NCBI RefSeq assembly: GCF_003334765.1
Contig: NZ_QOWT01000036.1
Length of the DNA stretch: 40,009 bases
Source of the DNA: Escherichia coli
GTDB lineage: Bacteria; Pseudomonadota; Gammaproteobacteria; Enterobacterales; Enterobacteriaceae
Strand: one strand, 5' to 3'
This document shows positions 8,781 to 29,299 of the stretch, piece by piece. Position 1 is the first letter of the stretch; the number at the start of each line of letters is the position of its first letter. Below the pieces are notes generated by a model. That model did no database searches. It saw only the letters and a program-made list of their open reading frames with translations, and had not been told where the DNA came from. Made by a program: the position numbers and the translations under genes.

Positions 8781-8818
8781 AAACCCATAATTACAGAAAA
8801 TAATTATGGGTTTTTTAT
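8781..8818 (+). terminator. Rho-independent terminator after entF
   Basis: Stem cccataatta (8784-8793) pairs with taattatggg (8801-8810), followed by a tttttt run, 16 bp after the entF stop. Confidence 0.6.
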
Positions 8819-27442: not shown

Positions 27443-28345
27443 TCAAAAACTCTCATTTAGACGGTCAATAAATCGGGAGAACACCAAATTATTTAAAGAA
27501 GATTTATTATAGGAAATGTAAAGCTTTATTGAAGGTAACGGATGTTCTAGTTTTATCTCTTTTAAGTTAAGAAAGTCACGGTAGAAATTATAAAGTTCAT
27601 AGGGGACTATTCCCAGTAAATCTGTAACTGCAATGCTATTAATGATTGTCAGCAAAGAGGAACCACGAAATGAGATTTTGCGATTCATAAATCTCTCGTC
27701 TATTTCCATTTGAATATCATCAACCCCTGCTGATTTAGATATTAATTGGGTGAACTCTTCTGCCATAATTTGTTCATAAGTGCTATTGTCAGTAATTCGT
27801 GGATGCCTATTACTACAAATTAGAGTATTGCGAATCGTATGCAATGGCATGCAAATGACGGAACGGCTGATCACTGGCATTTGGGTGATCACCAGATCGG
27901 CTTTGCGGTGAACCAACAGTTCTTCAGCATTCTCTGCTGACATGAGGATATCATGGCACTCAATCTCGACAGAGGAATCTTGCCGTAGGCAGCGGATCAG
28001 CATACTATTATTAGAGCAAGAAATGAGCTGAGGGCCGTAGATAATAAAGTTTTTCTTTAGTTCGGACTTATTGACTATATTAATTGTTTGTTCAAGGCCT
28101 CTGAGATTTTTCTCAAGATGGTGATGCAGATTTAACCCTGTTGTCGTCGGCGCGATACCTTTTCCTGAGCGAATGAATAAAGGGTCATTAAATTGCGCAC
28201 GTAAGCGTTGTAACGACTGGCTCACGGCTGATGGGGTGATATATAGTGATTCAGCAGCTTTGCTAATGCTTAAATGCTGGTAAATACACTCAAATATGAC
28301 AAGAAGATTTAAGTCGAACTTTTTCAAGTCGTAGAGATTGGCCAT
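27443..28345 (-). CDS. ybdO: LysR-family transcriptional regulator YbdO (300 aa)
   Basis: The N-terminal helix-turn-helix (LSISKAAESLYITPSAVSQSLQRLRAQF) is LysR-type; the coding sequence is markedly AT-rich by eye. Confidence 0.9.
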   Translation of the reverse strand: MANLYDLKKFDLNLLVIFECIYQHLSISKAAESLYITPSAVSQSLQRLRAQFNDPLFIRSGKGIAPTTTGLNLHHHLEKNLRGLEQTINIVNKSELKKNFIIYGPQLISCSNNSMLIRCLRQDSSVEIECHDILMSAENAEELLVHRKADLVITQMPVISRSVICMPLHTIRNTLICSNRHPRITDNSTYEQIMAEEFTQLISKSAGVDDIQMEIDERFMNRKISFRGSSLLTIINSIAVTDLLGIVPYELYNFYRDFLNLKEIKLEHPLPSIKLYISYNKSSLNNLVFSRFIDRLNESF

Positions 28346-28552
28346 ACACTACTCCGGTTATATTTTTCTTCCATGATATATTCACTTAATCAATGTTTTT
28401 TGCGTATATATTTTTATTGATTATGTTTTTTGCTTAACTCAGGATTAAGTTTTTCTAAAATAGCACAGCCACTTAGGGCAGAGCGAGCAATTCATGCTTT
28501 TTTAGGATGGTTGAAAAGCAGGGATATAGTTCAACCATCCATGAATTACCTT

Positions 28553-29299
28553 TTATTTATTCCCCATAATGATATTAAGCGTTTTCTGATCGGGCAACCC
28601 CACGGCCTGTTGTAGCGTATTTTCCTTACTCATGTAATAGATAGCCGGCGTGACATTTGCCCCCAGATCGTCCATCAGTTTCTCATTGTCACTTAACACT
28701 TTCATTTGCTCTGTACTTACGTTTGCAGGCACGTTTAGCTTAAGCTTGCCACCAGAGGCTTCATATTGTTGCCAGGTTTTTGCGGGATCTTTGGAGGCAA
28801 GAATTGCCGCTGCTGTCGCCGGGCTTTCTGGCTTGATAACCCCAACCAACAATGTTCTTAATTGCACTTTGCCAGAATCTACCCACGGGCGCGCCTGCTG
28901 CCAGAACTGTTTACAATATGGGCAGAACGGATCGGCGAAGACGTAGACAATGACCGGCGCATCTTTTTTACCGTCGAGGAGCCAGTGGGATTGTTCCATC
29001 CGTTGCCACATTTCGCGTCCGGCTGGTGCGTAAATTTCTTTTTCGATAAGTGTGTTACTCAGGTTTTCACCTTTCTCGTTGTACATGTAACCAGAGATAG
29101 CGTGCTTACCATCTGGAGTCAGGTAGATGGTGACGCCCATATCCTGATACTTTCCGAGATAACCTTTCATTCCTCCGGGGGCATCGAATGTTTTGATGAT
29201 TGTAATGCCCTGTTTTTCAATCGCTTTTACTGGAGCAGGAAGTTCCTCTGCGAAGGCGATTGCAGGAAGCAGAGCCAGTAAAAGTATCTTTTTTAACAT
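28553..29299 (-). CDS. dsbG: Periplasmic thiol:disulfide interchange protein DsbG (248 aa precursor)
   Basis: Signal peptide [17 protein letters not shown] and thioredoxin-like active site CPYC; the track ORF is over-extended by 20 codons. Confidence 0.92.

Follow-up and report, generated by a model that had tools for sequence, protein, structure and literature searches.

Comparative evidence for a selected hairpin without a U-tract at the 3′ end of the Escherichia coli dsbG transcript

Efficient release of the transcript at intrinsic terminators of Escherichia coli needs a U-tract. The recognition site of LysR-type regulators is an interrupted dyad, about 15 bp long and built around a T-N11-A core near -65. 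Very AT-rich DNA is a more typical target of H-NS. A further class of elements was described by Dar and Sorek in 2018, who found that stable stem-loops without U-rich tails, followed by a mild excess of C over G, protect Rho-dependent 3′ ends (PMC6061677). Stem-loops of this class shield the RNA from PNPase and RNase II, and the C-over-G sequence downstream of them is rut-like (PMC6061677). The class is recognised by steady-state 3′ ends mapped to the foot of the stem, by read-through that rises under bicyclomycin and by ends that are lost or extended in pnp/rnb mutants.

The element described here is a perfect inverted repeat located between dsbG and ybdO (now annotated citR) in a 40,009-nucleotide stretch of E. 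coli DNA, termed the window. Its arms, GGATGGTTGAA (28505-28515) and TTCAACCATCC (28530-28540), are complementary at 11 of 11 positions and are separated by a 14-nt spacer. Both flanking genes lie on the minus strand. The dsbG coding sequence occupies 28553-29299 and ends in a TAA stop codon at 28553-28555, as given by the ORF list and by the RefSeq annotation of identical DNA, and ybdO occupies 27443-28345 in the RefSeq annotation. The DNA of the window is K-12-like, and the intergenic region differs from that of MG1655 only by one A fewer in an A-run. For positions above 28437, K-12 coordinates are obtained by adding 609,274 to those of the window. A plus-strand ORF of 61 amino acids with a TTG start (28430-28615) overlaps the end of dsbG, and no evidence supporting it was found.

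Read on the minus strand, as dsbG-sense RNA, the repeat would form a hairpin shortly after the stop codon. A 12-nt spacer, AAGGUAAUUCAU (28541-28552), separates the TAA from the stem, which begins 13 nt past the stop; the spacing is similar in other species, where the median stem start is +11. The 5′ arm of the hairpin reads GGAUGGUUGAA (28530-28540), the fast-evolving loop of 14 nt reads CUAUAUCCCUGCUU (28516-28529), and the 3′ arm reads UUCAACCAUCC (28505-28515). The stem is followed by the tail UAAAAAAG (28497-28504), in which an A-run stands instead of a U-tract. In total, about 200 nt of untranslated RNA extend past the dsbG stop.

The position of the hairpin, on the sense strand and right after the stop codon, is that of a canonical terminator. 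Its composition is not. Only one of the eight nucleotides after the stem is a U, compared to about five or more in a canonical U-tract. The loop of 14 nt compares with 3–8 nt in canonical terminators, and the stem is AT-rich, with G-C in 5 of its 11 pairs, rather than rich in G+C. Moreover, a consensus terminator scan did not call the hairpin. Because of the missing U-tract, the long loop, the low number of G-C pairs and the absence of a scan call, it is not a canonical intrinsic terminator in E. coli. The initial annotation had described a perfect 11-bp repeat at 28505-28515 and 28530-28540 with a 14-nt gap, which the sequence bears out. It had also stated that no U-run follows on the dsbG strand, which is correct given the tail UAAAAAAG, and was right that the repeat is not a canonical dsbG terminator, in view of the 14-nt loop, the single U in eight and the scan result.

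A second, outer repeat of 8 bp, formed by AATTCATG (28489-28496) and CATGAATT (28540-28547), could extend the helix over a 9-nt bulge; on the minus-strand RNA its 3′ half reads CAUGAAUU. This pairing is disrupted in Escherichia sp. E1V33 and does not occur in Citrobacter, and the outer repeat was rejected as part of a longer conserved helix. Since it is kept only in close relatives of E. coli, it probably lies outside the selected structure.

First-order random sequence is expected to yield 0.35 perfect 11-bp inverted repeats with loops of 3–30 nt in every 40 kb, and at least one turns up in 25% of random 40-kb windows. The repeat count by itself is thus unremarkable and gives moderate support only. 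The predicted fold is more distinctive: a 46-nt segment folds at -15.2 kcal/mol (z -5.75) and an 81-nt segment at -23 kcal/mol (z -5.9), and in each case none of 200 shuffles folded equally well. The element is single-copy, as it occurs at a median of one place per genome and at most at two in 4198 E. coli genomes. At 0–1 mismatch, the window contains no further copies of the half-site besides the repeat itself. With up to 2 mismatches there are 21 matches compared to 11.5 expected, none of which falls close to the ChIP-exo peak of CitR or to the ybdN promoter, and the half-site was rejected as a regulon motif on these counts.

A search of Rfam 15, including permissive E-values, gave no family at its gathering score over the repeat; the overlapping matches were at chance level, such as a snoRNA model with 20.6 bits and E = 4. 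Elsewhere in the window, the STnc70 sRNA family (RF02069) matches 29433-29526 on the plus strand with 42.7 bits, compared to a gathering score of 40. This match falls between dsbG and ahpC, shortly before the ahpC start at 29671. Apart from the repeat described here, the window holds only two perfect inverted repeats of 11 bp or more; both look like canonical intrinsic terminators and offer a local precedent for a hairpin of the terminator type. One, at 8781-8813 on the plus strand, consists of AAACCCATAATTA and TAATTATGGGTTT around a 7-nt loop and is followed by TTTATTTGTTT. The other, at 35784-35811 on the minus strand, consists of GCCCGCCAGGT and ACCTGGCGGGC around a 6-nt loop, and the AAAAAA in front of it reads as a T-run on the minus strand.

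The region past dsbG was compared across species by means of DsbG-anchored loci, with one genome per species; 69 of the 70 loci were usable. A hairpin of at least 6 bp is found within 65 nt of the dsbG stop in 64 of the 69 loci, with a median start at +11. The stem sequences are unrelated between genera. The E. coli stem, GGATGGTTGAA, corresponds to GGATAACTGAAA / TTTCAGTTATCC in Escherichia sp. E1V33, to ATGAGTGATTG / CAATCACTCAT in most Citrobacter, to GAATGATTGATAT / ATATCAATCATTC in C. youngae CCUG and to CAAGGTGATTG / CAATCACCTTG in Pseudocitrobacter, while Raoultella has GCCAGGCTC and Pectobacterium has CAGGAGGGA-ATA-TCCCTCCTG. These comparisons show that the E. coli hairpin is the positional and sequence homologue of a post-dsbG hairpin present throughout the Enterobacteriaceae.

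The tails that follow these stems differ in their T content. A census of the eight nucleotides after the stem found at least five T in 10 loci and at least four in 26 loci. Carriers of T-runs include C. youngae CCUG and wls619 (TTCTTTTC), Pseudocitrobacter (TTTTCT), Pectobacterium and the loci L036, L054 and L055, and in these the hairpin is therefore a canonical dsbG terminator. All of the canonical T-runs are on the dsbG-sense side. In Escherichia, the tails contain 1–3 T per 8 nt, and a U-tract is missing in all four of the lineages sampled. The presence of T-runs in several relatives suggests that the hairpin descends from an intrinsic terminator of dsbG.

The hairpin can also be followed in genomes that have lost the downstream gene. 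In Citrobacter sp. Awk 4 (L021) and in HRGM_0066 (L018), citR is gone and dsbG adjoins ybdN; the hairpin is present in both. In C. amalonaticus S646 (L076), citR is degraded and the hairpin is retained. The L021 and L076 hairpins are clearly homologous to that of E. coli. The hairpin thus travels with dsbG irrespective of whether citR is its neighbour.

Within E. coli, the 3′ end of dsbG was found in 5423 of 5426 complete genomes. Approximately 1150 genomes carry a divergent citR promoter allele, and in these the similarity to the window begins at about 28484, downstream of the hairpin. This marks a sharp boundary of divergence: in 28485-28552, almost no variation is found in the end of dsbG, in the hairpin or in GCATGAATTGCTCG, while in 28346-28484 the alleles of the citR promoter and leader are only 82–89% identical across E. 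coli. The boundary fits the H-NS-associated diversification reported previously (PMC4720273).

Some of the other loci in the comparative set are unusual in themselves. In Salmonella enterica arizonae and diarizonae (L022 and L023), the dsbG-ybdO spacer is longer (315 nt) and contains GC-rich palindromes, such as GCCCGATA...TATCGGGC, at +37 to +65 past the dsbG stop, without an AT-rich hairpin. We take these palindromes to resemble REP-type elements. A contig titled "Chryseobacterium sp. 18061" (L028) carries a dsbG of the Enterobacteriaceae type, 75% identical, and a 2.2-kb MAG contig titled "Lachnospiraceae bacterium" (L075) is 97–98% identical to the E. coli dsbG-citR region. Both titles are probably wrong, and contamination or mis-binning is the likely cause.

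The history of the stem was traced in an unguided MAFFT alignment, A3, of 26 sequences from Escherichia, Citrobacter and Pseudocitrobacter. The arms fall in register without gaps, the 5′ arm in columns 25-35 and the 3′ arm in columns 50-60, and RNAalifold independently predicted a core helix of 9 bp from this alignment. Standard pairs occupy 99.1% of the 234 cells of the helix, compared to 89.9 ± 0.9 in shuffles, and 7 of the 9 pairs show changes on both sides, compared to 3.5 ± 0.9; none of 500 shuffles reached either observed value. Cells with a double change number 32, compared to 9.8 expected. When the register is slid by 1–3 columns, pairing drops to only 26–58%. These patterns show that base pairing, rather than sequence, has been preserved by selection.

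Variation within Escherichia is distributed in the same manner, with changes in 10 of the 14 loop columns and in 8 of the 22 arm columns. Six of these eight arm columns make up three compensated pairs by which E1V33 differs from E. coli. The U-tract is missing in E1V33 as well, and selection for pairing has therefore outlasted the U-tract. In several Escherichia and Citrobacter sequences, a few bases of the 3′ arm recur towards the 3′ side of the loop (...AUCC... in E. coli, ...CUCAU... in Citrobacter and ...CAGUU... in E1V33). A shorter alternative pairing between loop and 5′ arm is conceivable, and the resemblance could be due to chance.

The helix cells that depart from Watson-Crick pairing bear on the strand that is folded. 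Ten of them are G.U on the dsbG-sense strand, compared to a single A.C, which would be G.U on the opposite strand. Counted as lineage-by-position events, the census stands at about 6 to 1, a small number once shared ancestry is allowed for. In Citrobacter, columns 31 and 54 pass through the series U-A, U.G and C-G. No strand bias of this kind would be expected of a cruciform or of a DNA dyad bound by protein. Whole-segment folding energy, regarded as uninformative, was rejected as a strand test: 73-nt segments from the 69 species average -21.4 kcal/mol for the antisense and -19.9 kcal/mol for the sense strand, so that the antisense strand is, if anything, more stable. The test was dropped because of the heterogeneity of the segments and because stacking context makes AU-rich helices differ. 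As folding energies do not favour the sense strand, the strand assignment rests on the wobble census and on the orientation of the T-runs. Taken with the compensatory changes, these show that selection acts on an RNA hairpin and that this hairpin is part of the dsbG transcript, at its 3′ end.

The region between the hairpin and citR contains the citR promoter. The start site has been mapped to 107 bp upstream of the ATG in K-12 by dRNA-seq, or to 106 bp in strains SE11 and SE15 by 5′ RACE (PMC4720273). Mapped onto the minus strand of the window, the promoter spans 28450-28465, with an extended -10 element, TGcTATTTT, at 28465-28457 and the start site at 28451/28450. The extended -10 is conserved in Citrobacter. 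Relative to this start site the repeat lies at -54 to -89. Phylogenetic footprinting predicts a CitR (YbdO) operator, CTTAA-N7-TTAAG, at +2 to +18, with conservation that extends from Escherichia through Citrobacter and Salmonella (PMC9068703 Fig. S2). This corresponds to 28433-28449 on the minus strand, which is the only exact match to the box in the window.

Binding sites of YbdO have been determined by ChIP-exo in K-12 grown in glucose M9, at 636934-636965 (inside citR), ybgD, ygiL and yjjP (PMC8464067 Dataset S4). The repeat, at K-12 637779-637814, is absent from these sites, which represent one growth condition (PMC8464067). The strongest site, with a signal/noise of 97, corresponds to 27660-27691 and lies about 220–250 bp from the 3′ end of citR, in its coding region and outside the dsbG-citR intergenic region. 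The CitR peak has been described as "upstream of citR-ybdNM" (PMC9068703). No box resembling CTTAA-N7-TTAAG is visible at 27660-27691, nor does this in-window peak contain a half-site similar to that of the repeat. Two further papers on YbdO give no motif and no footprint at its own promoter. A weak ChIP-exo site of YfeD, an uncharacterised factor, is listed under "dsbG" with a signal/noise of 3.49 (PMC8464067 Dataset S4); it falls at 28421-28444 (K-12 637695-637718) and overlaps the CitR box and the citR leader. In E. coli 2018-01-1CC (L005), an IS1A element at 1748-2445 of this locus is inserted at about 28435-28443 of the window, inside the CitR box and citR 5′ UTR, with a 9-bp target duplication, CCTGAGTTA. 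This insertion separates the citR leader and operator from the promoter, and the dsbG hairpin upstream is intact.

Several explanations that place the function of the repeat in DNA, on the other strand, or nowhere can be weighed against these observations. The initial annotation had correctly placed the repeat upstream of ybdO, as its distance of -54 to -89 from the published start site confirms, and had offered two alternatives, a dyad operator, for instance for LysR autoregulation, or an RNA structure. If the repeat were a double-stranded DNA dyad recognised by CitR, or by another factor acting at the citR promoter, its location would be in the range usual for LysR-type recognition sites (about -80 to -50), and autoregulation of CitR has been reported (PMC9068703). 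Location is compatible with a LysR recognition site and is the sole point in favour of one, the other four of the five features looked for being absent. The arms covary and show no conservation of sequence, with G.T tolerated on one strand only, and the hairpin persists in lineages with citR missing or degraded. Arms of 11 bp around a 14-nt spacer do not fit a T-N11-A box, whereas the published CTTAA-N7-TTAAG at 28433-28449 does, and the ChIP-exo sites lie elsewhere, with no similar half-site at the peak inside the window. The operator suggestion thus finds no support and appears very unlikely, while the suggestion of an RNA structure is the one favoured by 7 of 9 doubly changed pairs, 99.1% paired cells and G.U tolerance on the dsbG-sense strand. 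A role in DNA could also be exerted through H-NS, with the repeat forming part of the upstream element that silences citR. This element was defined by a deletion from -250 to -176 relative to the ATG, approximately 28520-28594 in the window, which raised reporter activity and relieved H-NS repression (PMC4720273). The deletion takes out the 5′ arm and most of the loop, but also the very AT-rich end of dsbG (AATAAATAAAAGGTAATT). Because it cuts the repeat inside the loop, the hairpin is inseparable from the AT-rich dsbG end in that experiment. Silencing through H-NS would leave the compensatory changes, the G.U strand bias and the retention of the hairpin in lineages without citR unexplained, and it is considered improbable. 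The repeat might instead serve a plus-strand transcript, as a terminator or structure of an RNA, antisense or divergent, with its start close to the citR promoter and its end at CCUUUUAUUUAUU over the dsbG stop. On the plus strand a U-rich run does come after the extended helix, TTAACT-16-TAAAAT at 28434-28461 resembles a promoter, and several Citrobacter species have an antisense tail of UUUUGUU. However, promoter-like sites are at chance level (5 compared to 5.6 expected), the U-run is dictated by the dsbG codons Asn-Lys-stop, G.U pairs of the sense strand turn into A.C mismatches on the other strand, the plus-strand minimum-energy fold lacks the outer helix, and Rfam gives no match. Such a transcript seems exceedingly unlikely. 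A chance palindrome without function would be unsurprising on numbers alone, as about a quarter of random 40-kb sequences hold a perfect 11-bp repeat of this kind, but it is refuted by the covariation, by the hairpin in 64 of 69 species loci and by the variable loop beside a conserved stem, which leave it a practically negligible probability.

The main rival holds that the hairpin is a self-standing terminator of dsbG, weak or leaky but factor-independent, for which neither Rho nor exonuclease trimming would be needed. In line with this explanation are the usual terminator position just past the stop codon and the homology to hairpins with T-runs in C. youngae, Pseudocitrobacter, Pectobacterium and three further loci (L036, L054 and L055), as well as the description of ybdO as monocistronic, with a start site of its own (PMC4720273). 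Against it stand the single U in eight post-stem nucleotides, the 14-nt loop, the G-C content of 5 in 11 pairs, the consensus scan without a call, and the lack of a U-tract in all four Escherichia lineages sampled. A terminator that works on its own is accordingly a minority possibility, unlikely yet still to be taken seriously.

The explanation that is probable, by a modest degree of confidence, is that the hairpin descends from a dsbG terminator, has lost its U-tract, and now defines and protects the 3′ end of dsbG mRNA, with Rho aiding termination. In Escherichia, the U-tract would have been replaced by an A-run while pairing was still maintained. Because pairing has been maintained after this loss, the hairpin most likely acts like the U-less 3′-terminal hairpins of Rho-dependent transcripts. 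RNA polymerase reading past dsbG would enter a stretch of about 200 nt that is untranslated and bound by H-NS, and could be stopped there by Rho. Exonucleases acting in the 3′-to-5′ direction would then trim the RNA back to the hairpin, which would in this manner fix and stabilise the 3′ end. A likely side effect, or at least a plausible one, although still speculation, is that the silenced citR promoter would be insulated from OxyR-driven transcription of dsbG.

Some features fit this Rho-aided, protective role less well. The excess of C over G amounts to +6 to +8 per 78-nt window (28544-28441), but the C/G ratio is only 1.0–1.14 over the 40–100 nt after the stem, so that the signal is weak, and this is a weak point of the Rho-dependent fit. 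The loop of 14 nt is longer than usual for hairpins of the terminator type and counts against the role as well. The overlap of the repeat with the H-NS-dependent upstream element (approximately 28520-28594) counts against a reading at the RNA level only. In the literature, including the part of its supplements that was covered, no account of dsbG 3′ ends, Rho dependence or stability was found, and dsbG and ybdO are not mentioned in the portions covered of the supplements of Adams 2021 (PMC7815308) and TERMITe (PMC12207403).

The barrier formed by the hairpin might also be leaky or conditional. CitR (YbdO) has been reported to be a repressor of oxyR, katG, ahpCF and sodA (PMC11681634). Were OxyR-induced transcription of dsbG to read through into citR, it could override silencing by H-NS and produce negative feedback on the peroxide response. 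This is a rather improbable extension; if true, the conserved hairpin would set the gain of a peroxide-response loop.

The assignment of the hairpin to dsbG has consequences for how the region is annotated and used. A tempting annotation, that of a LysR operator upstream of ybdO/citR, is removed, and an element at the boundary of the dsbG transcript takes its place. The locus would also offer a clean natural case of a terminator hairpin without a U-tract in which pairing is still selected, with three compensated pairs that date from after the loss, within one genus. Such a pattern is to be anticipated if 3′ hairpins that lack a U-tract are functional in their own right, for example in shielding mRNAs terminated by Rho or in keeping read-through out of a gene silenced by H-NS.

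Compared to the known systems, the hairpin is an ordinary, previously unannotated 3′ hairpin of the terminator type, and the sole mildly notable point is that its U-tract was lost while its stem has continued to evolve in a compensatory manner. Dyad symmetry and a location at -54 to -89 relative to the transcription start of a LysR-family gene are shared with the LysR-type recognition site; the hairpin differs in its 11-bp arms and 14-nt spacer, in the covariation of these arms, in its persistence without the regulator gene and in the location of the CitR box elsewhere. REP and BIME elements are likewise palindromes downstream of genes that are able to stabilise the upstream mRNA, but the E. 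coli element is single-copy, AT-rich and unrelated to them in sequence. With the canonical Rho-independent terminator it shares its location downstream of the stop codon in sense orientation, its 11-bp stem and its homology to hairpins with T-runs, whereas in Escherichia the U-tract is replaced by UAAAAAAG, the loop is long and the stem is AT-rich. Finally, the stem-loops of Dar and Sorek resemble it in being stable, in lying just past a gene without a U-rich tail, and in being followed by a long untranslated stretch in which Rho could act, with a mild excess of C over G that is a weak signal at dsbG. The 3′ end placed at the dsbG stem is a predicted one; its loop of 14 nt is longer than usual for terminator hairpins, and the A-rich sequence upstream is imposed by dsbG codons.
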